Below, piece by piece: positions 14,093-63,037 of a stretch of 64,000 nucleotides of DNA. The DNA is from Phycisphaerales bacterium (GTDB lineage Bacteria > Planctomycetota > Phycisphaerae > WQYP01), in NCBI GenBank assembly GCA_027451365.1, contig DAIDJN010000056.1:98924-162923 (forward strand), given 5' to 3'. Each line of letters begins with the position of its first letter. The stretch's first letter is position 1. The translations under genes and the position numbers were made by a program. The notes beneath the pieces were generated by a model. The model had not been told where the DNA came from. It saw nothing but the letters and a program-made list of their open reading frames with translations, and made no database searches.

Positions 14093-14170
14093 ATAAGCGT
14101 ATATGTGCAACGTACCTGTGTCGGGTGCGTGGCAATTCTATAGGTTGGTCTATCGTCGAAGGAGATGCAG

Positions 14171-14899
14171 ATGACTGAGAAATTTGGAAATAACGCAAAA
14201 CAGGCAATTCATGGAGGATTGGGTTTGTCGCTGGCTGTCGCGGCAGTGCTGGCGATCGGTGCCGGTGCGGGCGCGGCGAAGGCGGGCACGATAACTTACG
14301 GCCTGCAGTTCGCACCCAGCGGTGATGGAACATTCGAAAGCTGGTCAACTTACGGTTCCAACATAACCGGCGTGGAGGCCAACAATCCGCCCACGTTCAA
14401 TTCGTCGGATAACGGAGTGACCTTCACACTCGGAACAGCTACCCTTAAATTTACGGGCGGCCAAAATTACAGCACCGGTTCGGCATTGAACCAGTCATTT
14501 TACTATATGACGTCCAGTACTTCAGTACTTGCTGCCGATTTTACAGGCTTGAATGCCGGGGACACAATTGATTTTCAATTTCTTGAGAGCTTGCAGCCTT
14601 TTTCGCCAACTGTCAAGGTAGTCGGCTCCACTTCCGGGTCATTGTCTAAATCCATCGCGTCGAGCCCGCATGGAAGCGCTTTTGTTGATTTAGGCTCCTT
14701 AACAGGCAACAACAGCTATACGATTACATCGTCGCTTAACCCCGGTGGCGGGGAGGGTGACGTTTCTGCTGCCCTTATCACCATTACAAGCGGATCGATT
14801 TCCGCCGTGCCGCAACCCGCTTCCATGGGCCTGCTTGGGCTTGGTGGCTTGGGATGTATCGCCCTGGGCTTGATTGCCCGGCGGCGGATGAGACTTTGA
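14171..14899 (+). CDS. PEP-CTERM sorting domain protein (secreted, exosortase-type anchor)
   Basis: Signal peptide; C-terminus ...SAVPQPASMGLLGLGGLGCIALGLIARRRMRL (PEP-like motif, TM helix, Arg cluster). It shares TYGLQFAP, (T/N)AGDT(I/V)D(F/M)QF(L/I)ES and ALITIT motifs with the next gene. Confidence 0.8.
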   Translation: MTEKFGNNAKQAIHGGLGLSLAVAAVLAIGAGAGAAKAGTITYGLQFAPSGDGTFESWSTYGSNITGVEANNPPTFNSSDNGVTFTLGTATLKFTGGQNYSTGSALNQSFYYMTSSTSVLAADFTGLNAGDTIDFQFLESLQPFSPTVKVVGSTSGSLSKSIASSPHGSAFVDLGSLTGNNSYTITSSLNPGGGEGDVSAALITITSGSISAVPQPASMGLLGLGGLGCIALGLIARRRMRL

Positions 14900-15106
14900 A
14901 CGAATTGCTGAAACGAGCGGCGCCAGTAAGCGGCCGTCTCTTTCCCGGGTGAGGGAGAAGTATGGATGCGTACCCGCCCACATTACCGCGCTTTCCCAAT
15001 CACCATGGGTGAAGCCGGGATAACCTGTTGAAAACGGGTGCGGCGGTGTTCGCCGCACTTTATCCGCCATTTGTTCCGGCGGATCATTGTAAATCAGGAG
15101 ATATAT

Positions 15107-15808
15107 ATGAATTTCCATGCTTCTATTCGTGTGGCAGCCGTTCCGATGATCGGATTGGCGGCGATTTTCGCTCTGGCCGGGACCGCGACGGCCACGCCGG
15201 TGACTTACGGCCTGCAGTTCGCACCGACCAATTACACGGCCTACACAGGTTGGGCGTCCGGTGTGACGGTGGCGCCGTTTACGCCGCCGCCATTCAACGG
15301 CGTGGCGACCACGACCTATGCACTCGGATCGGCTTCCTTTGCCATCACTGGCAACAACTATAACATTCAGAATGGCATAACGGGCGGTACGCCAACCACT
15401 GATATTTCCTGGTTGAACCGCGCCTTCTTTTTTGGCAATGGGGGCACCCCTTTAACCGCCACACTTTCCGGCCTTTCCGCCGGTGATACGGTGGATATGC
15501 AGTTCATTGAAAGCTTTCAGACGGGCAATGAACCGCAGGTGGCCATTTCGCCCGCATCCGGAAACACCCAGCCAACGGCCATTGCGACCGATACCAGCTT
15601 CACGGATGCAGGCACTTATACCGGCGCGACAAGCTACAATCTGACTTTTACCAATGCCGCTGGCGGTGCTGGCGAATTCGATCTTTCCGGCGCGCTGATC
15701 ACCATTACGCCCGCGGCAGCGCCCGAACCGGCTTCGCTGGGATTGTTCGCATTGGCGGCAACGGGCCTGCTGTTGCTGAAACGTCGGCAGACCGGCTCCG
15801 CAAGGTAA
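15107..15808 (+). CDS. PEP-CTERM sorting domain protein (tandem paralog of 14171..14899)
   Basis: AGGAG RBS before ATG at 15107; signal peptide; C-terminus AAPEPASLGLFALAATGLLLLKRRQTGSAR. Confidence 0.8.
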   Translation: MNFHASIRVAAVPMIGLAAIFALAGTATATPVTYGLQFAPTNYTAYTGWASGVTVAPFTPPPFNGVATTTYALGSASFAITGNNYNIQNGITGGTPTTDISWLNRAFFFGNGGTPLTATLSGLSAGDTVDMQFIESFQTGNEPQVAISPASGNTQPTAIATDTSFTDAGTYTGATSYNLTFTNAAGGAGEFDLSGALITITPAAAPEPASLGLFALAATGLLLLKRRQTGSAR

Positions 15809-50414: not shown

Positions 50415-51467
50415 TCAGTAACTGACTCTGACAAACAGCCCCAGAATGGTCGCATCGCTGTGCGAGCCGGTCGGCTGGGATAGCCGCGTGGCGGCAAACA
50501 CACTGTTGGCGACGCCCCCGATTTCATAATGTCCGGAACTTGGTGGTATGTGCAGCAGGCCGTTCAGCGGATAGGTGATGGTGGTGCCCACAAAAGTGCC
50601 CAGATAACCATCCCGATAACTGTGCTGGTTCACATCCAACCGTTTTTCATTATGTGTGAATGATACACTGACCGGCGAATAAATTGTCAGGCCGCCGGTA
50701 TGCGGCACCACAACTACCGGGTTAAACCCGACCTCAAAATACTGGCCCGCGCCGGAAGTATAATAGCTTCCGTCGTAATCGAACCCGACCATCACAAACG
50801 GATGAAAGGCAAAGTCGTGCAGGAATCGGTCGTCGTTGAGACTTAGACGCAGCGAAATTTCCTGGCTGTCGGTCTGCCCGCGGCCAGTATCAACATTGCT
50901 GAGCGGATTGCCGCCGGGCACAAATATCTGATTCACCGGCGTGATAAAGTTGGTGTACGCCGTATCAAAGCGGACCAGATCCATAATGTCATACTGGTAA
51001 CCGGCCGTCACATCCAGTTCAGTAAACGCGCTGGCTGGCACAAACCCCGTCTGGCCGCCGACGACGGCGGTGCCCGCGGCTCCCTGCGCCAGCCCATTGA
51101 TATAGGGCGTCCGCACGTCATTGGAATAATCCGCAAATGTTCGCAGATACAGGCTTCCAAGATGTTTCACATTCCAGGAAAGCTCCGTAATATTCTGAAT
51201 ATTGAGGCGGTTGGGTGCCACATCATGATAGCGGAACCAGTAGTCGTTGAAATAGCCCAGCTGGCTCGTCAGCCGCAAGGGGGTCAGAAATCGGTGGTAT
51301 GCGGCCAGAGTGTTCTTTGGCACAGCCACACTGCTGGTGCTGTTGGGGCCGAAGTAAAGCGTGGGCAGAGGCATCATGCCGTTATCCACGCCGGTGGCGG
51401 ACAAAGACGTTGCGGAAAACAGCAAAGCTGCGCAGGATATGCCTTGAATCAGAGCAGATTGCCGCAT
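50415..51467 (-). CDS. putative outer-membrane beta-barrel protein
   Basis: ATG at 51467 with a GGAG RBS; signal peptide; alternating hydrophobic beta-strand pattern; C-terminal aromatic ...FVRVSY. It lies 18 bp upstream of, and is co-oriented with, the GH5 gene. Confidence 0.45.
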   Translation of the reverse strand: MRQSALIQGISCAALLFSATSLSATGVDNGMMPLPTLYFGPNSTSSVAVPKNTLAAYHRFLTPLRLTSQLGYFNDYWFRYHDVAPNRLNIQNITELSWNVKHLGSLYLRTFADYSNDVRTPYINGLAQGAAGTAVVGGQTGFVPASAFTELDVTAGYQYDIMDLVRFDTAYTNFITPVNQIFVPGGNPLSNVDTGRGQTDSQEISLRLSLNDDRFLHDFAFHPFVMVGFDYDGSYYTSGAGQYFEVGFNPVVVVPHTGGLTIYSPVSVSFTHNEKRLDVNQHSYRDGYLGTFVGTTITYPLNGLLHIPPSSGHYEIGGVANSVFAATRLSQPTGSHSDATILGLFVRVSY

Positions 51468-51730
51468 CAGAGTCTCCATTGGGTCATGCCAGTTCCGCAC
51501 CGCCTTTTGACCGGCCCACAGAATAGCGGCGCGATTCCTGCGTGGCAACGCCGGCACGTCTGGCAGGAATTAGCAGCCATTAATTCCACCAACGAACACA
51601 CCAATCCCGCTGTAACAAGGCGGCGGAAAGATGATGATCGCCGGTTGAGTCGAGAGGCTCATTTCCGGTTCTGCCAGAGCGTGGTGGTGCAAGTTCCCTG
51701 CCCCACTGACCCCTTGTAGGCTAATCGCGA

Positions 51731-52405: not shown

Positions 52406-52959
52406 AAGCCGCCATGGGCCGAATGGGCCGACAGCGATTTTTGTTTAATACTATCCAGAGCAGCGCTTGCAGGCCAGACCATTACTTGGGCGGCAGCCAA
52501 TGGGTGCCTGCGGTTGTGAATTTTGGTGTCCGAATCCGACAGTTTCAAGGTCCGCGAGGGTACTGGGGCTGGCGAGATTAATTTTTCGTATCTACGAATA
52601 GTGAAAATCTAAAATCTTTTTTGACTTCCGATAAAACATGTAGTAATCTTCACGTCGACAGGTCACCGTGCAACGACGGTTGCTCTGAGTCGGCGTTTGG
52701 CATTCAGGCATTGAATCCTGCGGACTGCGCAGCCTGGAGTGCGGAAAGCCGGGCCGAATCAAACCGCTGAATCGTTCAGTTTCACCTGTTGTTGTAAAAA
52801 ATAGAATAAATTGCAATCGTCGCGAAGGGAATGGATTTCCACGCATATTTGCGATTAAATGGATTGACACATTTAGGTGTTTGAATGTATTGGCGATGTT
52901 TGTGTGTCGCGCGGTAGCGCGGCGCGATTTATACTTTTTTTCTGGAAGGAGACTTCACC

Positions 52960-54048
52960 ATGCACGTTAAGAATAAACCGGTCCGAGTGATGGCTTTGCT
53001 GGCGGTCTGCGCCGGCGTAACGGGTCTGACCGGCGCGCATTGCGCCCGGGCAATTGCCCCGAGCGATCAGATCATTTACACCGTTGATCCTAACGCTGGT
53101 GGAACCTCGTTCCCGATTGGAAATCCGATTTATGCGGCCGTGGAGGTTGTGGCTTCCGACGGCAGCTCCGGTACGGGGAGTGTGGTGGGCAAGTACACTT
53201 CCAACGGCAATCTTTATTTTGAAGTTCTTACCGCCGCCCATGTGGTCGACAACGGCGCGCTGGTCAACGGCAATATCGGGTATGGTTCCCCGCAGCCGCC
53301 CAATGCGCTGGCCGCCCCAATGGATCCGTATCAAGTTGTCGCCACGGGAGGGAGCACCGGCAAGGAGGATATGGCCCTTCTTGCGGTAAACGTCGGCCCC
53401 ACAACGAATATCATTGATTTGGGGTTCTATGGCTTAATGACGCCCCTGACAGTTACGCCTTACGCAGTGCCAAATCCCTATACGTCCCAATCGCTTGGAT
53501 TCACGGAAATTGGTTATGGCCGCACAGGCACTGCCCAAAATTTCGCGGGCGTACCGGGCTACACGCAGACAATTCCGAGCGGAGGCACCAAAATGTTCCA
53601 GAACAACAAGGTGAATGCCATCACAACACCGACCAGCTGGGGGAGTTATACCTATCAGGGGGTGGAGTGGCTAAGCGTTGCACCAGCGAACAATAACGGA
53701 ACTGGAACATCATTCGCCGGCGATTCCGGCGGCCCATATCTGATGTCCACCAACGCGGCGGACCAGGCCACGGTCAATGTTTACGGCCGGCCTGGTGGAA
53801 CAGTGGCAATACCGATTACCACCAACGGCCTGTTCGCGATTCATACTGCGGGCTATTACAACGCGCCCAACATAAAAATGAATGCGTCGCTGAATCGCGG
53901 TGAACTGATTACCAACGCGGATCTGGGCTGGATTAACACCAATATCGGCAACACCACCCCGGTGCCTGAACCCGCTGCGCTTGCGCTGCTGACTGTTGGC
54001 GGGGTGATGCTGCTGTTGCGAAAGCGGCAGTTCAGCCAGCGATCCTAA
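52960..54048 (+). CDS. trypsin-like (S1 family) serine protease with PEP-CTERM anchor
   Basis: GGAAGGAG RBS; signal peptide; catalytic triad contexts LTAAHVV (His), EDMALLAV (Asp), FAGDSGGPYL (Ser); C-terminus PVPEPAALALLTVGGVMLLLRKRQFSQRS. Confidence 0.8.
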   Translation: MHVKNKPVRVMALLAVCAGVTGLTGAHCARAIAPSDQIIYTVDPNAGGTSFPIGNPIYAAVEVVASDGSSGTGSVVGKYTSNGNLYFEVLTAAHVVDNGALVNGNIGYGSPQPPNALAAPMDPYQVVATGGSTGKEDMALLAVNVGPTTNIIDLGFYGLMTPLTVTPYAVPNPYTSQSLGFTEIGYGRTGTAQNFAGVPGYTQTIPSGGTKMFQNNKVNAITTPTSWGSYTYQGVEWLSVAPANNNGTGTSFAGDSGGPYLMSTNAADQATVNVYGRPGGTVAIPITTNGLFAIHTAGYYNAPNIKMNASLNRGELITNADLGWINTNIGNTTPVPEPAALALLTVGGVMLLLRKRQFSQRS

Positions 54049-54114
54049 GCCTGTCGGTCTTGCGTATTGCATGTATACGTCAACATGTGTTATGTGAAAC
54101 TTCCGGAGTTTGAT

Positions 54115-55083
54115 ATGCAATGCCCAGCGACAATTTTCAAGTCCGTCGGATATTGGGCGCTTGGAAGCCTGCGCGTGGGGCCTGGATTCATGGTCGCCAT
54201 ACTTCTTCTGAGCTTCCTTTCCCTTCAGGGCTCTCTTTTGGCAGCCACCACTGCGGGGCCGACGAAAGGTGGCGACGATTTTAACACCACCAGCCTGGTC
54301 CCCACGACACCCATCAGCATCGGTCAGGGAACGACGGTGACACAATGCCCATGGATAAATACGGGTATGAATGCCTTTGTGGCGGCCAATCCAACCTGGG
54401 CCTACAGCTGGAGCACAACAGCATTGCCGGGGACTTTGGCTTACAGCAGCTATATCCCGTGGGCGGCCAATCAGCCCCCTATCACCCTTCCGGATGGCAC
54501 GGTGAATCCGAGCAAATACAGCAATGCTGAACGGGGTGGCGCGAGTTTCATTACCACGTTTAATCCGCAGGGGGGCACCGCAGTAAATGGAATTGGCTTC
54601 ATTCAAGCCTATCAGGAAACTTTTACGAATTTTGATCCCACCGCCAACGGCGGCAATGGTGCGCCCGTTAACAGCAGCGTAAGCTATGTAAAACTGGATA
54701 ACGCCGCCGTTGCAAGCAATCCCTTTTATAACACTGGTTCCGGCGGCGGTTATATAGGCGCGGCCAACCAGGGTGCGACCAATCAGACTTGGATGGAAGA
54801 CCGTCCCAACGACCCGGAACCAGCAGCCGCGGATGCGGCGGGAATTCCGGCGGCCACGGCGGCCGCCGCGGAAAATTTTATTGCCAACGTTCAGTTTCAG
54901 GTGGTTGTGGCCGTGGATACCGGTCCCAAGGCGGGGGGAGCTCAACATAACATAGTTTTGTACAACGGGTACTGGTGGGGCTATCAGTACAGCAGCACGG
55001 ATACACCGGAACCAGCGGCACTCACGCTGCTGGGGCTTGGCGGGGCGATGCTGCTGATGCAGCGCCGCCGGCGATCCGTCTGA
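54115..55083 (+). CDS. PEP-CTERM sorting domain protein
   Basis: ATG at 54115 with a GGAG RBS (the track start at 54067 is TTG); C-terminus TPEPAALTLLGLGGAMLLMQRRRRSV. Confidence 0.7.
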   Translation: MQCPATIFKSVGYWALGSLRVGPGFMVAILLLSFLSLQGSLLAATTAGPTKGGDDFNTTSLVPTTPISIGQGTTVTQCPWINTGMNAFVAANPTWAYSWSTTALPGTLAYSSYIPWAANQPPITLPDGTVNPSKYSNAERGGASFITTFNPQGGTAVNGIGFIQAYQETFTNFDPTANGGNGAPVNSSVSYVKLDNAAVASNPFYNTGSGGGYIGAANQGATNQTWMEDRPNDPEPAAADAAGIPAATAAAAENFIANVQFQVVVAVDTGPKAGGAQHNIVLYNGYWWGYQYSSTDTPEPAALTLLGLGGAMLLMQRRRRSV

Positions 55084-55379
55084 TTCGGACTCTTCTTAGG
55101 CGCTTGCTGGTAAAATTCATCCCCCGGGCGAGAGAGCGCAAGCGCCGCGTTGCCTCCCGGCAGCGCGGTGAATTTTTTTTGGATTGCCGGAAATTTCACT
55201 GCTTGTGCCGGCTGGCTGTCGACGGATCGCTTTGACCGCTTCATCGCCGGGGATGCGCCTACATAAACATTTACGCCGTCCTGCGGAAGGAACCTTATGC
55301 CGTTTGCCTGATTCGATCGGCCTAATCGTGCCGCCATAATTGGTATTGGCGAGGTGATCGTTTGCAATCGGAGGATGTA

Positions 55380-56549
55380 ATGGACATATTGAAAAACGCC
55401 TGTTCATGTCCTTGCAGCACGATGTTGCCGTTGGCGGCAATCGTCGGCATCGGTGTCTCTATATCGAATCTCGGGCAGCTAAGGGGGGATTCGGCGGACG
55501 TGATATTGCAGGCCGGCGAGCGCGGATTTGGACACTTTGATCAGAACGCGACCAATACCACGACGCGACCATCCAGTCGGGTCAGCTTTTTGGTCACACC
55601 TGCCATACAAGAGGTGTCCGCAATGGGGCCAGCGGCATGCGCCCCCACTTCAGTCGTTAATTCATTTAATTTTCTGCAAGCACAATACTATCTTTCCAGC
55701 CTGTACAGCGTCGGCGACCCATATTCGACCATCAGTCGTTTGGCTTCGGGAACATATATGGGAACTACTCCAGGCGTTGCGAATCCCAACTCGCAGACCG
55801 GTTATATTGGCGGCGGAACATTTCCAGAGAATTTCGTGCTGGGAAAGGAGAAATACCTGCAAAACATACCCGGTGGAATCACCGGACCAACCGGCCAGCA
55901 TTATGCCATTCAAACAGTTGGGCAGGTTGCGGGTCAGTACAGCAGTCTGCAGGCGTACAACGGCACCGGCCAGCCATTCACTCAGGCTGTGAATGGCCCC
56001 TGGATGGGTGGCGTATCCAATCAAATTCCAAGTGCGCAGTTTATTTTCCAACAACTCAAGGCGAACGAGGATGTTGAGATGTTCTTTGCCTGGACCGATG
56101 CAAACGGCAGCAATCCGCGGCCAGGTCATGTGGTTACGCTGACCCAAATCAACTACAACCAGACACAAAATTCAGGAACCCTGAGTTTTGTGGCTCCAAC
56201 GAACAGTATCAATGTTGGCACAAATGCGAACCCAATATATTCGTACGCGCATGGCACTGGTGACGCACCGGATATCACCAGTCTTACCCTCACCCAAATG
56301 CCCAATGGTTATCTCCGGTTCAGCTATGCGGGCGGCGCGGCGAACGTTTCCGCGGACGATAACAGTGGTGGTTCGGCCTACGGCATCGTCGTAGCCGCCA
56401 TTGCCGAAAGTCCCATCCCAATTCCGGAACCGGCAAGCCTGTCGCTTCGCGCAATTGCCATGATTGGCTTCGCATTGCCGCGACGGAATATTTCACCGCG
56501 CTGTTCCTGTGAAAATTTCCTCCGACATGGGAACGCGCCCGGCATCTGA
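55380..56549 (+). CDS. PEP-CTERM sorting domain protein with extended tail
   Basis: ATG at 55380 with a GGAGG RBS; PIPEPASLSLRAIAMIGFALPRRN followed by 19 extra residues before the stop. Confidence 0.6.
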   Translation: MDILKNACSCPCSTMLPLAAIVGIGVSISNLGQLRGDSADVILQAGERGFGHFDQNATNTTTRPSSRVSFLVTPAIQEVSAMGPAACAPTSVVNSFNFLQAQYYLSSLYSVGDPYSTISRLASGTYMGTTPGVANPNSQTGYIGGGTFPENFVLGKEKYLQNIPGGITGPTGQHYAIQTVGQVAGQYSSLQAYNGTGQPFTQAVNGPWMGGVSNQIPSAQFIFQQLKANEDVEMFFAWTDANGSNPRPGHVVTLTQINYNQTQNSGTLSFVAPTNSINVGTNANPIYSYAHGTGDAPDITSLTLTQMPNGYLRFSYAGGAANVSADDNSGGSAYGIVVAAIAESPIPIPEPASLSLRAIAMIGFALPRRNISPRCSCENFLRHGNAPGI

Positions 56550-56808
56550 CAGACAGTTGTCAGTGGCATACGACATTTCGAAGTTCTGCGCTGGTCACAG
56601 TCATTCGCCACCCGCGTCCATGCGGGAGAATGGAGTGTGATACATGAAATAATAACATCAATTGTGCGCGAGCCTGCGTGGATGCTTATCGCTAAACCGC
56701 CTGCGCTCGCGCAAGGGAGAACGGGGTTTTGTCACACACGCCAATGCGCGGGGACGTTCCCCGTGCAATTCGGCGCTGTGGATCGCCTTTCTTTTTAAGG
56801 ATTGTTTT

Positions 56809-57462
56809 ATGAAAACCACACTCATTACTTTATCCGTCGCCGCTGTCGCTTTACCGGCCGGCATCAGCATTGCCGCGCCAATCGGCGTGGGCGACCCGCC
56901 GGCCGGGACGCCACCCATCAGCATTGTCGTCACAGAGGCCAAAGCCAACAGCAGCATTATTATTACGGAAGGAACCGGAACATCATTCAACGCTGTGGTG
57001 GCCGTAGCCAGCGGGCCGGATGGCGTGCCGGAATATTCCACGGGTGGCATCTTCCTGCAGGCCGGGGATATTTACTGGCTTAATCCGACCGGCATTTTGC
57101 CCACTATTTCGGACATGATGCGCATATATCCTAGCGCGGGCAACACCGGCGACACTTTTTCCGTATTTTCCGCCAGCTATCCGGAAGACGGGCAGGAAGA
57201 CCCCGCTTCCAAACCGCTCCCGGACAGTCCTTACGATGTCAATGCTCTGCCGGGCGGTCTGTTTCCGGTCAGTTCCGCGGGTACGGCCAATTATGCCAGC
57301 GTCCAGGAAAACGGTACCTACGTTTCGCCCGGGGGCAACGGAAGTGCCGGCAGTTTTACCTTCAACAGCGACCATGATGTCGTGCCCGAACCCGCCAGCA
57401 TCGGGCTGATCGCCGCAGCGGGCGGAATGCTTCTGCTGTCCCGGCGTCGTCGGACGGTCTGA
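56809..57462 (+). CDS. PEP-CTERM sorting domain protein
   Basis: ATG at 56809 with an AAGGA RBS (the track ORF starts at TTG 56662); signal peptide MKTTLITLSVAAVALPAG; C-terminus VVPEPASIGLIAAAGGMLLLSRRRRTV. Confidence 0.75.
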   Translation: MKTTLITLSVAAVALPAGISIAAPIGVGDPPAGTPPISIVVTEAKANSSIIITEGTGTSFNAVVAVASGPDGVPEYSTGGIFLQAGDIYWLNPTGILPTISDMMRIYPSAGNTGDTFSVFSASYPEDGQEDPASKPLPDSPYDVNALPGGLFPVSSAGTANYASVQENGTYVSPGGNGSAGSFTFNSDHDVVPEPASIGLIAAAGGMLLLSRRRRTV

Positions 57463-57869
57463 AAATAATCTTGGGAAACCACGCCTTTCCAGAGGGAGAG
57501 GAGAGTGTCACATCTTGTACCCGTGCGCCAGTCATCGGCCGCGATGAATTCCATGAATGCTGTATACCTGACATGAATGCTTATGCGACCACCGCAAAAT
57601 CCGGCTGGTGTCTGAACATTTTATAAAATGGATTCTAAAACATGGCGCTGATGCATCATCCTGCCGCGCTATCCGAGATGCGTAAGATGTTATCGGCCAT
57701 CTGAAAAATTCTACGGATCGGTCGCGGCCTTATTGCACATCGCCAAAATAGAGTAATATGCAATCGGCCTGCTGCCGGCCGATAGACGCAACTTCGCCCG
57801 CAGCCGCCTAAAATGTAACGTGCGGGCATGTGCCGGTTTTGGGACTCCGGAGGCAGCCGCAAAAGGACC

Positions 57870-58961
57870 ATGGAAAAGGCGCGGCATGACAGATTGTGGA
57901 CAAAGCTTTCATTCGACAGGCGTCAGCCGCCAAGGCGGCTTGAACCGGCATGGGTGGCAAATCCAATGAATGACCGAACGGCCTACGCACTCCACGCAAT
58001 TTTGAACGACCATTACGAAATGGGTCGAATTTTACGATTCCGCCAGATTCGCAAGGGTACACAGGCGGAATGTTTCGAACTGCTGACCGCGGAACAGAAT
58101 GAATTCCTGTTGTTTTTGTATCCGTCTGATTTTTCGCGGCGAGCCTTGTGCGACGCGGCACCGGTGATGGACCGTCTGGCTTCCGGCGGTTTTCCGGTTT
58201 CCCGACCCGTGGCCAGTCGGGATGGGGATACCGCAGGACGAAATGTGTATGCCATTGAAGGTCCGCAAGGTTCCCATTTTTTTGTGACCACTCTTGCTCC
58301 AGGACAAATGGTCACCGCCGCGGACTGGTCAAGTCATGACCTTAGCAATCTGGGGTTGCGGCTGGGCTGGTTGCACCGGACCATGCGCGACGCCTTCAAT
58401 GCCGATACCGCCGCGGCGGGTGAAAATTTGTCCCCGGCTCGTCGGCAGGCACCGGTTCTGCGGCTGGCGGCGGCCCTGGAAAACGCCTCACCGCGTGGTC
58501 AACAGCTTCGTCAGATGCTTTCCGCCGCCGCGGTGGATCGTCTTTTGACCGATCTTGAAAAGTTGGAAAAGCTGCCAAATTCCGCTTTCGGCTATGTGCA
58601 CGGCGCGATTTCACCCGAGGCGGTCCTTCTGGATCACGACCGGCATATTGCCAGCGTTGTGGACTGGGGAAATTTTTCCATTGGTCTGCCAGCGCAGGAT
58701 GTGATCGACGCATTTGTGCACTGGTGCGTGCATAAAGATGGTGAAGTACGGGCCGAAGCGGCGCAAGCCCTGTTGCAGGCGTACATTTCTCTGGAAAAAT
58801 TCCGCGGCGATCAATGGCATTCCGTGGTTATCGCGTGGTGTGCCCATCGGCTTTCGTCCGCCCTTTCTGGGCGCACCCATCTGCCCCGCGGTTTTGGGTC
58901 AATTCTCGAAAATCCACATTCTCTTTCCGCCACCCTGACTATTTGCCAGAGCAAGCTATAA
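57870..58961 (+). CDS. phosphotransferase (APH/ChoK-like kinase fold) family protein, possibly catalytically impaired
   Basis: AAAGGA RBS at 57870. Kinase-like fold pattern, but the Brenner loop reads YVHGAISPEAVLLD (HGA instead of HGD) while the DW(G/E) metal-binding motif VVDWGNF is retained. Confidence 0.45.
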   Translation: MEKARHDRLWTKLSFDRRQPPRRLEPAWVANPMNDRTAYALHAILNDHYEMGRILRFRQIRKGTQAECFELLTAEQNEFLLFLYPSDFSRRALCDAAPVMDRLASGGFPVSRPVASRDGDTAGRNVYAIEGPQGSHFFVTTLAPGQMVTAADWSSHDLSNLGLRLGWLHRTMRDAFNADTAAAGENLSPARRQAPVLRLAAALENASPRGQQLRQMLSAAAVDRLLTDLEKLEKLPNSAFGYVHGAISPEAVLLDHDRHIASVVDWGNFSIGLPAQDVIDAFVHWCVHKDGEVRAEAAQALLQAYISLEKFRGDQWHSVVIAWCAHRLSSALSGRTHLPRGFGSILENPHSLSATLTICQSKL

Positions 58962-59113
58962 TCCATGGTCACATTGCGGCGTTGCGCAGGTCCGGTCGAT
59001 TGGCAATGTCAGCCGTTGGCCGCCGTTGTGCCGCTGCCGCTTGAACCGCTGATGCGCCGGAATATCGCCCTGGAGTTCTGGGAGTCAGGAAATTCTTAGA
59101 AAAGCTGAGACTC

Positions 59114-59734
59114 ATGGCAGAAAATATGTCCAGCACGCCCGTCGGCAGCAATCCAGAAACATGGGTTGATCGTTATGGCGATATTCTATATCGCTTTGCC
59201 TGCCAACGGCTAAATGATACGGCCACTGCCGAAGAACTGGTGCAGGAAACCTTCCTTGCGGCATTCCGAACCCGCGCCGGCTTCCGCGGCCAGTCGGCCG
59301 AATCGACCTGGCTTATGGGCATCCTGAAGCACAAAATTGTGGACCATCTGCGGAAATCGGGGCGCGAAAAATGCTTTTCTGATACGCCGGACGGAATCGT
59401 TGATTCCCTATTCAAATCCATTGGCCATCGGAAACGGCGGCCGCCAGCCTGGAACGGTGACCCCGCCCAGCTTATGGAAAACGAACAGTTTTTACAGGCC
59501 CTGCAAAATTGCATGGACGGTCTGCCCGCGGTCCAGCGCCAATCATTTGTGCTGCGGACTGTGGACGAACAAGCCGCCGACGATGTCTGTAAGGAGCTGG
59601 GCGTTACGCCGACCAACCTATGGGTACTGCTGCACCGCGCCCGTTTGCGGTTGCGCGAATGCCTGGAAGGCAAAGGATTTGATCGGCCAAAGGTTCGCCG
59701 GAATGTTTCGGAACCGGCCGGAGGCCAATCGTGA
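59114..59734 (+). CDS. ECF-subfamily RNA polymerase sigma-70 factor
   Basis: Region 2 ELVQETFLAAFR; region 4 HTH near the C-terminus. Confidence 0.9.
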   Translation: MAENMSSTPVGSNPETWVDRYGDILYRFACQRLNDTATAEELVQETFLAAFRTRAGFRGQSAESTWLMGILKHKIVDHLRKSGREKCFSDTPDGIVDSLFKSIGHRKRRPPAWNGDPAQLMENEQFLQALQNCMDGLPAVQRQSFVLRTVDEQAADDVCKELGVTPTNLWVLLHRARLRLRECLEGKGFDRPKVRRNVSEPAGGQS

Positions 59735-60006
59735 CTCATATTCTGTCATGCAAACATTCGCTGGAGCTATCCGCCAAACAGACCGTCGCGGAACTCACGC
59801 GGGGCGAAAGGATATGGTTGCGCGTGCATCTGCTTGCCTGCGTTGCCTGCCGCCGCATTCGCAAACAAGTGGCCATTATTGAGCGCACACTGGTGCTGGC
59901 CCAGGATCGGGGCTTATGGCCGCCAAAAGCTGGTTCGATCTCACTTTCGGACACTTCCCGGCAGCGGATGAAGCTCGCCTTGGAACAGGCCGGAAAATCT
60001 GGTTGA
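59731..60006 (+). CDS. small zinc-binding (ZAS/zf-HC2-type) anti-sigma factor, no TM segment
   Basis: GTG start overlapping the sigma-factor stop (GTGA); HLLACVACRR = H-x3-C-x2-C ZAS motif. Confidence 0.65.
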   Translation: MTHILSCKHSLELSAKQTVAELTRGERIWLRVHLLACVACRRIRKQVAIIERTLVLAQDRGLWPPKAGSISLSDTSRQRMKLALEQAGKSG

Positions 60007-60235
60007 CGCATACTGGTGATCTGTCATGCCCCACGGGCTTTACAGGTTTTCCAGATTTGTCCGATTGGACCGACGGGAAGCCCGTCGATTCCCGATAGCC
60101 ACGCGGTCTCGGAAAATAATTTCGTAAATCTGAAATTTGATCACTTCGCATCCCGGCGGCGTTGCGGTAAACTACAGGGCTTGCAAATTCGCGGATGGTT
60201 CGCGTTTGCATGGCTCTATCGTTCAGGAGTTGGTC

Positions 60236-61492
60236 ATGATTTCCCGGCGCAAGACCCGGCAGGTAAAAGTTGGCAATGTTCTTATCGGTGGCGACGCCCC
60301 GGTTGCTGTTCAATCGATGACCAGCGGCTACACGCACGATATTGATGGCTGCGTGCGCGAGATCAACAAGCTTGCCGCTGCCGGCGCTGACATTGTCCGC
60401 GTCGCCGTTCCGGAGCGCAAGGACACCGAAGCGCTGAAGGAAATTTTAAAACAGGTGAAAGTTCCTGTGGTGGCCGACGTTCATTTTCATTTCCAGCGGG
60501 CCATGGAAGCCATAGAAGCCGGCGTGAGTAAAATTCGACTGAATCCCGGCAATATCAACGACCGTAAACAGGTGGAAGCGGTGATCGACGCCTGCAAAGA
60601 GCGCCAATTGCCCATTCGCATCGGTGTGAATGAAGGTTCCATTGTGGAACGCAAAGACAAACAGCGGCGGCTGAAAGAGCTTGGCGCGGTCTTCAGCGAC
60701 AATCGGCATGGCCAAATGCTGGCGATTATGATTTCTAAACTCGAAGAATACCTTGATATTTTCTACGAGCGCAATTTTTACGATATTGTCATTTCGGCCA
60801 AATCGATTGATCCACTGCTGGTCATGGACGCCTATACGGAAATTTCCCGCCGGTTTGATCATCCCCTGCATCTGGGCGTCACCCATGCGGGGCCCAAGGA
60901 AACCGGAACCATCCGCAGCGTCGTGCCTCTGGGCACTCTGCTGGCCAACGGCATAGGCGATACCATCCGCATCAGCTATGCCAACGACCCGATTTACGAA
61001 GTCCAGGATGGCCTGGAACTGCTTTATGTATTGGGTTTGCGCACCCGCAAAGGCGCGGAACTTATCGCCTGCCCGACCTGTGGCCGCATTCAGGTGGATC
61101 TGTTCACGCTGGTGCAGGATGTGAATCGCAAGCTTAAGGAACAAATCACACTGCCGATCAAGGTTGCCGTGATGGGTTGCGTGGTGAACGGGCCGGGCGA
61201 ATGCGAAGGCGCGGATGTGGCCATTTTTGCCGGCGACAAGCGCGGCATCATTTATGTGCAGGGCGAAAAGGTGGCCAATGTCCCGGAAGAAAAAATTCTC
61301 GACGCTCTGCTTGAACAATGCTCCAAGTTTCAGGACAAAGTTCTGCGCGGTGAGGCCCGCCTTGGCGAAAAAGTGGTCGATATTCTTCCGCCGGACCCCA
61401 TTGGCGAAATAGGATCCGGCTACGCAAAAATCGCCGCAGAAAAGTCGCCCCAGAAAAATGCCGGTGTGGCGCTTCCGCTGGCGCCGCGCTGA
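60236..61492 (+). CDS. ispG: 4-hydroxy-3-methylbut-2-en-1-yl diphosphate synthase (flavodoxin)
   Basis: ATG at 60236 with an AGGAG RBS; VGNVLIGGDAPVAVQSMT...GADIVRVAV; C-terminal [4Fe-4S] cysteines CPTCGR...GC. Confidence 0.9.
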   Translation: MISRRKTRQVKVGNVLIGGDAPVAVQSMTSGYTHDIDGCVREINKLAAAGADIVRVAVPERKDTEALKEILKQVKVPVVADVHFHFQRAMEAIEAGVSKIRLNPGNINDRKQVEAVIDACKERQLPIRIGVNEGSIVERKDKQRRLKELGAVFSDNRHGQMLAIMISKLEEYLDIFYERNFYDIVISAKSIDPLLVMDAYTEISRRFDHPLHLGVTHAGPKETGTIRSVVPLGTLLANGIGDTIRISYANDPIYEVQDGLELLYVLGLRTRKGAELIACPTCGRIQVDLFTLVQDVNRKLKEQITLPIKVAVMGCVVNGPGECEGADVAIFAGDKRGIIYVQGEKVANVPEEKILDALLEQCSKFQDKVLRGEARLGEKVVDILPPDPIGEIGSGYAKIAAEKSPQKNAGVALPLAPR

Positions 61493-61588
61493 CGCGGCAC
61501 GTGCTTCCTGGCGAGGCAAGCCTTGTTTATGGCGGCCGAAGTGCTCTGATAAAATCCAGATCCTCAGGTCATGGGATGAAACCAATAC

Positions 61589-63037
61589 ATGTTTGACAGC
61601 CTTTCCGATAAATTTTCGACACTGTTCCGCAATCTTTCCGGTCGAGGCAAGATAACGGAAGCCAATGTCCGCCAGGCCATGGAAGAAGTGCGCACCGCTC
61701 TTCTGGAAGCCGATGTACATGTGGAGGTGGTGGAAAATTTCTGCCGCCGAGTGACTGAACAGGCCGTCGGAACAGAGGTTCTTTCATCTGTTGAGCCTGG
61801 CCAGCAGATGATAAAAATCGTGTTCGATCAGCTCGTGGAACTGATGGGACCGGTTGATTCGAGCATCTTTTACGTTGACCCGCCACCCACCATCATCATG
61901 ATGTGCGGACTTCAGGGGTCCGGCAAAACCACAACCTGCGGCAAACTGGCGATGTACCTGAAAAGCAAAGGAAAAAATCCGCTTCTGGTGGCGGCGGATA
62001 CCCAGCGTCCGGCCGCGATCGATCAGCTTGCCACACTCGCCGGTCAGGTCGGTGTGCCGATTTACCGCGAGGAACCCGGTAATTCGCCGGTGCAGATTTG
62101 CCGCCGATCCATCGACTTTGCCCGCGGCAATGGCCGGGATGTGGTCATTCTGGATACCGCTGGCCGATTGCATATTGATGACGCGCTGATGGGCGAGCTT
62201 CGCCAGATCAATCTTTCGGTCAAGCCGCACCAGATTTTTCTGGTGGTGGATGCAATGGTCGGCCAGGATGCGGTCATTTCCGCGCGGGCTTTTAACAGCC
62301 AGCTTGAACTTGACGGCGTGATCCTGACCAAGTTCGATTCCGACACTCGCGGCGGCGCGGCCCTGAGCGTGAAGACTATCACCGGCAAGCCGATTAAATT
62401 TCTGGGTGTGGGCGAAAAGCTGACCATGTTGGAGGAATTCCATCCAGACCGCATCGCACAGCGCATGCTGGGAATGGGCGATGTGCTGACGCTGGTGGAA
62501 AAAGCCCAGCAGCAGTTTGACGCCCAGGAAGCCGCCAAAATGCAGGACAAAATCTCCAAGGCGACATTCACCTTGGATGATTTTCTGGGGCAGATGCGGT
62601 CTTTCCGGAAAATGGGACCAATGAAGCAATTGCTCGGTCTGCTGCCCGGTGTCGGATCGGCGCTTAAGGATGTGGATCTGCCTGAAGAGGAACTTGACCG
62701 CACCGAAGCCATTATTCAAAGCATGACCCGCCGCGAGCGGGAATTGCCTGATAATATTGATGGTTCACGCCGCCGGCGCATTGCCGCCGGTTCTGGAACC
62801 GACCCGCAGGATGTATCCCGGCTGATCAAGGGGTTCATGACCGCGCGGTCTGTGGCGCGAAAATTAAGCACCATGTCCACTGGTCAGCGAATGGCCATGA
62901 TGCGCGGCATGGGTGATGGGGGCATTCCCGGCATGACCGGCATGGGATCCATGGGCGACGCGAGTCCGGGCAAAGTGCACCGCCTGTCTCCTGAACAAAA
63001 GCGAAAACTTCGCGACAAACGCCGCCGTGGGAAATAG
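61589..63037 (+). CDS. ffh: signal recognition particle protein
   Basis: N domain MFDSLSDKFSTLFRNL; G domain GLQGSGKTTTCGKLA and DTAGR; Met-rich M domain. Confidence 0.95.
   Translation: MFDSLSDKFSTLFRNLSGRGKITEANVRQAMEEVRTALLEADVHVEVVENFCRRVTEQAVGTEVLSSVEPGQQMIKIVFDQLVELMGPVDSSIFYVDPPPTIIMMCGLQGSGKTTTCGKLAMYLKSKGKNPLLVAADTQRPAAIDQLATLAGQVGVPIYREEPGNSPVQICRRSIDFARGNGRDVVILDTAGRLHIDDALMGELRQINLSVKPHQIFLVVDAMVGQDAVISARAFNSQLELDGVILTKFDSDTRGGAALSVKTITGKPIKFLGVGEKLTMLEEFHPDRIAQRMLGMGDVLTLVEKAQQQFDAQEAAKMQDKISKATFTLDDFLGQMRSFRKMGPMKQLLGLLPGVGSALKDVDLPEEELDRTEAIIQSMTRRERELPDNIDGSRRRRIAAGSGTDPQDVSRLIKGFMTARSVARKLSTMSTGQRMAMMRGMGDGGIPGMTGMGSMGDASPGKVHRLSPEQKRKLRDKRRRGK

Follow-up and report, generated by a model that had tools for sequence, protein, structure and literature searches.

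In a 64,000-nucleotide stretch of the genome of an uncultured Phycisphaerales bacterium (assembly GCA_027451365.1, contig DAIDJN010000056.1, positions 98,924 to 162,923 of the forward strand; this whole stretch is hereinafter called the window), four consecutive genes, denoted here g1 to g4, encode proteins that end in tails of the PEP-CTERM type, and structural models suggest that two of these neighbouring cargoes have enzyme folds that current annotation has missed. The product of g1 appears to be a divergent serine peptidase of the chymotrypsin fold, and that of g3, a papain-like cysteine peptidase with a degenerate tail. The observation of the array is correct, and the array itself, in which PEP-CTERM cargo genes of a Phycisphaerae bacterium are clustered, is a fairly ordinary instance of a sorting system that is already known; the current understanding of the PEP-CTERM/exosortase system is left unchanged by the results described here. 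What these results add is a family of g1-like peptidases with exosortase-type tails that escapes the Pfam and NCBIfam models used, the second, papain-like peptidase, and the variability of the cluster among strains. Environmental Gram-negative bacteria are rich in PEP-CTERM proteins, almost none of which, to our knowledge, has a known function.

The four open reading frames (ORFs) all lie on the plus strand, in the region 52406-57462, behind a 554-bp intergenic region: g1 (52960..54048) encodes 362 amino acids (aa), g2 (54115..55083) 322 aa, g3 (55380..56549) 389 aa and g4 (56809..57462) 217 aa. The translations of all four terminate in Pro-Glu-Pro followed by a hydrophobic helix and basic residues (g1 PEPAALALLTVGGVMLLLRKRQ.., g2 PEPAALTLLGLGGAMLLMQRRRR.., g4 PEPASIGLIAAAGGMLLLSRRRR.., with g3 discussed below), and four such tails in succession are far beyond chance. 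With the NCBIfam model TIGR02595, for which the cut-off is 16 bits, g1, g2 and g4 score 23.1, 16.7 and 25.3 bits, respectively, and all three pass; with the stricter Pfam model PF07589, the same three fall just under the cut-off of 20.7. A hidden Markov model of the tail that we constructed ourselves gave 39 bits for each of these three and 16 bits (E 5e-4) for g3, in which the core of the tail, PEPASLSLRAIAMIGFALPRRN, is followed by 20 further residues and the helix contains an Arg (whole tail, PIPEPASLSLRAIAMIGFALPRRN). The sequence-only reading of this DNA had described four consecutive PEP-CTERM genes; the row of four stands, and the tail that it assigned to g1 clears the curated threshold, with the correction that three of the tails are clean and the fourth, that of g3, is degenerate. 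At the N-termini of g1, g2 and g4, the charged, hydrophobic and AxA-type regions of a signal peptide are recognizable by eye (in g1, ..AHCARA/IAP). Two more ORFs bring the PEP-type total of the 64 kb to six, namely, 15038-15808 and, with a Pro-Gln-Pro variant of the motif, 14165-14899.

The g1 family of putative serine peptidases

The g1 protein contains the motifs TAAHV, with His94 (codon 53239-53241), DMALL, with Asp137 (53368-53370), and GDSGGP, with Ser256 (53725-53727), upstream of the Pro-Glu-Pro of the tail (residues 336-338, 53965-53973). A word-indexed search yielded 18 relatives that are 29-67% identical to g1. In the alignment of these proteins with g1, His94 and Asp137 are conserved in at least 90% of the sequences, and both GDSGGPY and Pro-Glu-Pro are invariant. 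For 17 of the 18, no Pfam domain has been precomputed, sub-threshold matches to PF00089 are detectable in 12 of the 18 family members, and the sole relative that is named at NCBI is a 'PEP-CTERM sorting domain-containing protein [Thermoguttaceae]'.

An AlphaFold2 (AF2) model of g1 that was built from the alignment of the relatives had a mean predicted local distance difference test score (pLDDT) of 75 and a predicted template-modelling score (pTM) of 0.75. Comparison of this model with the PDB using Foldseek produced 192 matches at E<=1e-3, and the best 50 of these are nearly all proteases of family S1 or the PA clan, including granzyme A, thrombin, DegP and Esp of Staphylococcus epidermidis (TM-score 0.71). 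When the profile of the family is aligned to PDB sequences, the segments VLTAdH, eDlAvl and GDSGGP fall on His57, Asp102 and Ser195 of factor Xa, trypsin and granzyme B. The family profile was needed here: a PDB search with the single g1 sequence returned one spurious match only. Taken together, the model and the alignments assign g1 to the chymotrypsin fold (PA clan) as a divergent member with the catalytic triad at the S1 positions, in agreement with the complete S1 triad that had been read from the sequence. A failure of the triad residues to align, which had been named along with that reading as grounds to reject it, is therefore not what we see. The likeness to family S1 (Esp, granzyme A, factor Xa, DegP) thus extends to the double beta-barrel, the order of His, Asp and Ser, and the motifs TAAH, D[ML]A and GDSGG at positions 57, 102 and 195.

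The differences from family S1 are substantial as well. The identity of g1 to its structural matches is only 10-16%, its matches to PF00089 and PF13365 are sub-threshold, mature g1 contains no cysteines, and the C-terminus carries a helix and the PEP-CTERM tail; furthermore, the g1 family has motifs of its own, namely, RFQNN, FTEIGYG, AVHT.G and, at the N-terminus, AxA/I[AG]PxxQ. The specificity position 189, six positions before Ser195, is occupied in g1 by Thr250 rather than by Asp (..GTSFAGDSGGP compared to ..KDSCQGDSGGP). The description of this protein as trypsin-like, which had been offered from the sequence, therefore seems apt for the fold and not for the specificity, because position 189 is a Thr.

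An exhaustive search of 1.84 billion representatives with the g1 profile, in which the results are counted as clusters at 50% identity, detected 522 proteins at E<=1e-3, 238 at E<=1e-10 and 129 at E<=1e-30, most of them 320-410 aa long and aligned from end to end. Among the best 150, the pattern G[DN]SG[GSA] is present in 137, xTAxH in 130 and a PEP-CTERM tail in 104. Because tails and motifs are kept across these representatives, the combination of a protease domain with an exosortase-type tail appears to be the standard architecture of the family. Many of the remaining tails, for example among the representatives P0164-P0228, have IPAPG, VPTPG or IPSPG in front of the helix and an RRRR cluster; this hints at a variant of the sorting signal and perhaps at another subtype of exosortase. 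One family member matches the Pfam IPTL-CTERM model. The genomes in which matches were found belong to Planctomycetota (Pirellulales, Tepidisphaerales, Phycisphaerae) and to metagenome-assembled genomes (MAGs) of Verrucomicrobiae.

The predicted signal peptide of g1 ends in ARA and is followed by IAPSDQ. The corresponding pattern I[AG]PxxQ, encoded in g1 by 53050-53067 (residues 31-36), is conserved right after the predicted AxA site in 70 of the 135 full-length representatives, and its first residue is Ile in 39 of the 70. Chymotrypsin-fold enzymes need an Ile N-terminus for the salt bridge with Asp194, and the Ile that follows the AxA site in the g1 family recalls this activating Ile16 N-terminus.

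The putative papain-like peptidase g3

Although g3 matched no family model in Pfam or NCBIfam, its AF2 model (pLDDT 79) points to a known peptidase fold. The comparison values are 12.8 for interpain A, 12.5 for streptopain, 12.1 for IdeS, 11.7 for staphopain C and 11.6 for a C39-like peptidase, and these comparisons suggest a papain-like fold for g3. In the model, Cys87 (codon 55638-55640) is located at the N-terminus of the central helix (residues 87-103), and His250 (56127-56129) lies on the facing beta-sheet, as is expected of the papain fold. Within the family, the Cys is conserved and this His is invariant. We accordingly regard g3 as a predicted cysteine peptidase of the papain-like fold with a Cys87/His250 pair. 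The 19 relatives of g3 yielded weak matches only, to Peptidase_C70 in 3 and to C39_2 in 2 (E ~0.03).

Compared to the characterized members of clan CA (streptopain and interpain in family C10, staphopain in C47, IdeS in C66, and the C39-like enzymes), g3 has no significant Pfam model, and a PEP-CTERM tail stands in place of a pro-domain or a transporter fusion. It also has an Ala at residue 272 (codon 56193-56195) where the family has an Asp that, judging by its spacing, would be the third catalytic residue. The Pro-Glu-Pro motif is present in 14 of the 19 relatives. The segment that encodes the Arg-containing helix and the extension of the tail is 56433-56549 on the plus strand. A relative that is 97% identical to g3 likewise has both Ala272 and the Arg in the anchor helix, whereas a relative with 87% identity shares the 20-residue extension and neither of these two replacements. 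Because of the replacement of Asp272 by Ala and the Arg in the anchor helix, the copy in the window may be weakened or decaying.

The three proteins encoded after g1 had been described from the sequence as unrelated to one another and of low complexity. There is indeed no significant similarity among g1 to g4 outside the tails; the second half of the description fails for g3, with its predicted globular papain-like domain. For g2 and g4, searches against the Pfam and NCBIfam families and the PDB sequences revealed no informative relative beyond the tails, so these two are annotated here as predicted secreted PEP-CTERM proteins with no fold assigned.

Gene layout, strain variation and the leader

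The start codons of the four genes were set using the ribosome-binding sites, which are GGAAGGAG, GGAG, GGAGG and AAGGA, at a spacing of 6-9 nt from the ATG, along with independent gene calls on identical metagenome contigs. The second gene starts 66 nt past g1, and longer gaps, of 296 and 259 nt, precede g3 and g4. A terminator-like hairpin of 12 pairs with a run of 8 T follows g2 (55143..55178, plus strand). Transcription of g1 together with g2 probably starts near the g1-proximal end of the 554-bp region, and g3 and g4 are each probably transcribed from upstream regions of their own. The latter gaps fit a published trait of PEP-CTERM proteins, which possess signal peptides, occur in many copies per genome, usually have more than 200 nt of non-coding DNA upstream and are mostly encoded as single units (PMC1569441).

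Contigs that are ~99% identical to the window (L013, L015, L016-L018) differ from it by whole PEP-CTERM genes at three sharp junctions. At 52892-52904, strain L013 (GCA_027426355.1) has an insertion with an extra 288-aa PEP-CTERM-like gene; at 54022-54104, the sequence is replaced in L016 (GCA_021804905.1) by 1.2 kb with a 257-aa PEP-CTERM gene; and at 55108-55123, L016 again has a replacement, of 1.65 kb, with two other genes (308 and 157 aa). The second of these junctions lies within the part of g1 that encodes the tail and changes the basic cluster from RKRQFSQRS to RRGRRTA, and the hairpin after g2 is kept in L016 at the end of the variable segment. Inspection of the three junctions revealed no repeats common to them and no attC-like element, and the possibility of integron-like cassette boundaries was dropped. 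Given that strains with ~99% identity gain or lose PEP-CTERM genes here, the locus is a variable cargo island rather than a fixed operon, and this part of the surface proteome turns over rapidly at the strain level.

The neighbourhoods in other organisms add to this picture. In ten GTDB genomes and two contigs, no g3-like gene was found within 10 kb of the g1 homologue, and usually no PEP-CTERM gene adjoins it. In two Joint Genome Institute (JGI) metagenome contigs from another organism (L019/L020), a g3-like gene is located directly upstream of a g1-like gene that is 64% identical to g1; in L021 and L023, another PEP-CTERM gene comes after a g3-like one, and in L021 this second gene is 28% identical to g2. 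In L023/L024 (GCA_021790475.1, GCA_027426555.1), from a related organism, the segment 10001-18479 contains a g3-like gene and then PEP-CTERM genes for proteins of 306, 210 and 292 aa, upstream of GcpE-Ffh, that is, in the same position as 55380-63037 of the window, so the location of the island appears to be conserved and its gene content is not. With the gaps, the hairpin after g2, the strain differences and the protease gene being mostly alone in distant relatives, g1 to g4 form one operon only in part and do not constitute one conserved unit.

The intergenic region upstream of g1 (52406..52959), which we denote the leader, separates g1 from a divergently oriented ThuA-like gene on the minus strand. 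It had been singled out as the most AT-rich stretch of the window, which is roughly right, although the bias is modest: the GC content of the leader is 48.2%, compared to 56.0% for the window, and it holds the lowest 500-nt bin (0.466), whereas at 300-nt resolution it ties with a stretch at ~41.2 kb. That AT-rich 'intergenic' stretch (41.2-42.3 kb) is itself not free of genes: two short ORFs lie in it, one of 146 aa and one of 89 aa, the latter with a CxxC motif. In the sister strain L013, the leader is 99.8% identical up to 52892. Directly upstream of this point of divergence, where the insertion of L013 is located, we read a weak sigma-70-like pair, TTGACA and TATTGG separated by 17 nt (52865..52893, plus strand), as a putative promoter; a consensus promoter scanner missed it because the -10 hexamer is poor. 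A sigma-54 -24/-12 site is known upstream of proteobacterial PEP-CTERM genes; none was found in the leader, and the total for the window is below chance. The 10-mer GTATTGGCGA occurs upstream of both g1 (52887-52896) and g3 (55343-55352), with ~0.16 such coincidences expected by chance, and is only suggestive, not convincing, as a common promoter element of the two genes.

Downstream of the putative promoter, ~35 nt before the start codon of g1, there is a GC-rich 10-bp hairpin with a U-rich tract (52903..52926, plus strand), and the predicted structure that contains it has an energy of -21.6 kcal/mol. In L013, the same hairpin closes the extra 288-aa PEP-CTERM-like gene, the stop codon of which lies in the loop, so in the window the hairpin looks like a deletion scar just before the ribosome-binding site of g1.

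Probable surface sorting and alternative readings

By analogy with characterized systems, we think it probable that g1 to g4 are exported via Sec and then sorted to the surface in an exosortase-dependent manner, with two peptidases among the cargoes. Each product would leave the cytoplasm by way of its N-terminal signal peptide, and the C-terminal helix would then hold it in the inner membrane, the basic cluster facing the cytoplasm. The cut at or near Pro-Glu-Pro would be made by an exosortase whose gene lies in another part of the genome, after which the protein would join the cell surface or outer membrane or be released. The peptidases probably would work outside the cell, in protein or peptide foraging or in surface remodelling; the neighbouring genes are rich in glycoside hydrolases. 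This scheme is modelled on the PEP-CTERM/exosortase system (PMC1569441, PMC3237569, bioRxiv 10.1101/2023.06.07.544157), in which the exosortases cleave PEP-CTERM (bioRxiv 10.1101/2023.06.07.544157), and on the rhombosortase-dependent protease VesB (PMC6219818).

The parallels with the PEP-CTERM/exosortase (EpsH/Xrt) system of Haft et al. 2006 (PMC1569441) include the tripartite tail, putative N-terminal signal peptides, homology that is confined to the tail, many copies per genome, long upstream non-coding regions and cargo scattered far from the sorting enzyme. By contrast, no exosortase, exopolysaccharide (EPS) locus or PrsK/PrsR/PrsT regulator was seen here, nor a sigma-54 site; two cargoes have recognizable, if predicted, hydrolase folds, in contrast to the founding description, with its emphasis on how little homology there is to known proteins; the g3 tail is extended and degenerate; and many g1-family members use PAP, PTP or PSP.

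The best functional analogue of g1 is the trypsin-family protein VesB of Vibrio cholerae, which is displayed on the surface only with the help of its GlyGly-CTERM tail and of rhombosortase; without the tail or its cleavage, both display and activity are lost (PMC6219818). Both proteins would combine a chymotrypsin-fold serine protease with a three-part C-terminal sorting tail. They differ in the motif (GlyGly versus PEP), in the sorting enzyme, which is of the rhomboid type in one case and an exosortase, unrelated to it, in the other, and in phylum; moreover, VesB is a trypsin homologue of the canonical PF00089 type, and g1, which stays below the Pfam thresholds, has neither Asp189 nor any of the disulfide cysteines. 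As VesB does for rhombosortase, the g1 family (at least 238 clusters in Planctomycetota and Verrucomicrobiota) would offer an exosortase cargo with an easy activity read-out.

Several of our observations weigh against the proposed export and sorting of two active peptidases. A Pfam search of ~45 ORFs of the window detected no exosortase, as had been stated from the sequence, and a count of hydrophobic helices over all ORFs in the window and in the loci L001-L024 showed that the sole window ORF of at least 200 aa with at least 5 such helices is BacA. The flanks of ~12 relatives and the sister-strain contigs contain no exosortase either, and no exosortase family appears in the gene tables of the contigs of two further relatives. 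Two multi-helix candidates in the relatives proved to be an EamA-type transporter and a protein without an assigned family, and were rejected as exosortases. The tail of g3 matches neither TIGR02595 nor the Pfam PEP-CTERM model, its signal peptide is weak, and the signal peptides of all four proteins were judged by eye only. The g1 protein stays under the Pfam gathering thresholds (Trypsin_2, 21.4 versus 27.6; Trypsin, 19.5 versus 20.6), and the E-values of the g1-family profile against the PDB are weak, the best being 2.9e-4. In g3, the place of the presumed third catalytic residue is taken by Ala both in the window copy and in P0025 (SFVAP, compared to SFIDP in the family). Finally, simple constitutive expression is difficult to reconcile with the terminator-like hairpin that separates g1 from its putative promoter.

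Some of these facts would be accommodated if the tails were plain membrane anchors or relics without exosortase processing, such that g1 is a periplasmic protease tethered to the inner membrane and g3 is decaying. The exosortase is missing from the window, the flanks of relatives and the sister-strain contigs; the helix Arg, the 20-residue extension and the Ala in place of Asp272 in g3 fit with decay; and the Chlorobium tepidum genome encodes two PEP-CTERM proteins and no EpsH (Haft et al., PMC1569441). We nevertheless consider such an explanation very unlikely. The invariance of Pro-Glu-Pro in 18 g1 relatives with only 29-67% identity and the retention of the tail over hundreds of g1-family clusters point to selection by a recognition enzyme, and with six ORFs of the PEP type in only 64 kb, the whole genome would be expected to contain many, a pattern that has so far always been accompanied by an exosortase (PMC1569441, PMC3237569). 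It also seems unlikely, if somewhat less so, that g1 to g4 comprise a dedicated functional module co-regulated from the leader, for example, a surface proteolytic complex or a set in which one protease matures the others. The four genes are adjacent and on one strand, and the g3-like genes beside a g1-like gene in L019/L020 or before another PEP-CTERM gene in L021 and L023, including the distant counterpart of g2 in L021, are compatible with a module; the ten GTDB genomes and two contigs in which the g1 homologue has no g3-like gene nearby and usually no adjacent PEP-CTERM gene are not. Nor are the variation of gene order among organisms, the insertion or replacement of genes within the array in sister strains, and the 296- and 259-nt gaps and the terminator-like hairpin that part g2, g3 and g4.

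The least probable of the alternatives, in our view, is that the array is controlled from within the leader, either by a regulatory RNA with a defined structure (a riboswitch or attenuator, for example) or by a small gene that annotation has passed over. In favour of this are the length of the leader, its AT bias, its conservation among strains, a stable hairpin with a U tract just before the g1 ribosome-binding site and a fold z-score for the whole leader that is, however, a modest -2.0. An Rfam search produced no match even at E<=5. The hairpin is explained as the end of the gene that is present in L013 and absent from the window, and long upstream regions are generic for PEP-CTERM genes (PMC1569441). 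Conceivably, the g1 family embodies a self-contained control of surface proteases throughout Planctomycetota and Verrucomicrobiota: cleavage at AxA would free the activating Ile, so that the signal peptide doubles as a pro-peptide; the protease, anchored by its tail of the PEP-CTERM or the PAP/PTP type, would stay inactive until an exosortase processes it, which would couple activation to sorting; and g1 would have a papain-like PEP-CTERM peptidase as its partner in a fast-shuffling cassette island. This combination of steps strikes us as quite unlikely to hold in full.

The rest of the window includes many glycoside hydrolases, prepilin-type N-methyl proteins, an extracytoplasmic function (ECF) sigma factor and housekeeping genes. 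For Ffh (61589-63037), the nearest homologues that bear a name, with 72-74% identity, come without exception from Phycisphaerae MAGs. A tRNA/tmRNA search of the window found none, and an Rfam scan of the whole window at gathering thresholds gave no match. The two PEP-type ORFs outside the array (14165-14899 and 15038-15808) are tandem paralogs encoding secreted proteins that are 38% identical, with a VPQPAS variant tail in the first and a canonical PEP-CTERM in the second; a LacI-family regulator is encoded in front of this pair (14165-15808), and a prepilin-type N-methyl protein and glycoside hydrolases, downstream. Next to the ThuA-like gene, on the minus strand, 50415-51557 encodes a secreted protein of ~350 aa with the C-terminus ..VRVSY and a faint Gcw_chp match, which may be an outer-membrane beta-barrel. 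On the other side of the array, an APH-family kinase gene (57828-58961) lies between g4 and the gene for the ECF sigma factor (59114-59734), 1.6 kb downstream of g4, which is followed by an overlapping 91-aa ORF (59731-60006), a possible anti-sigma factor.

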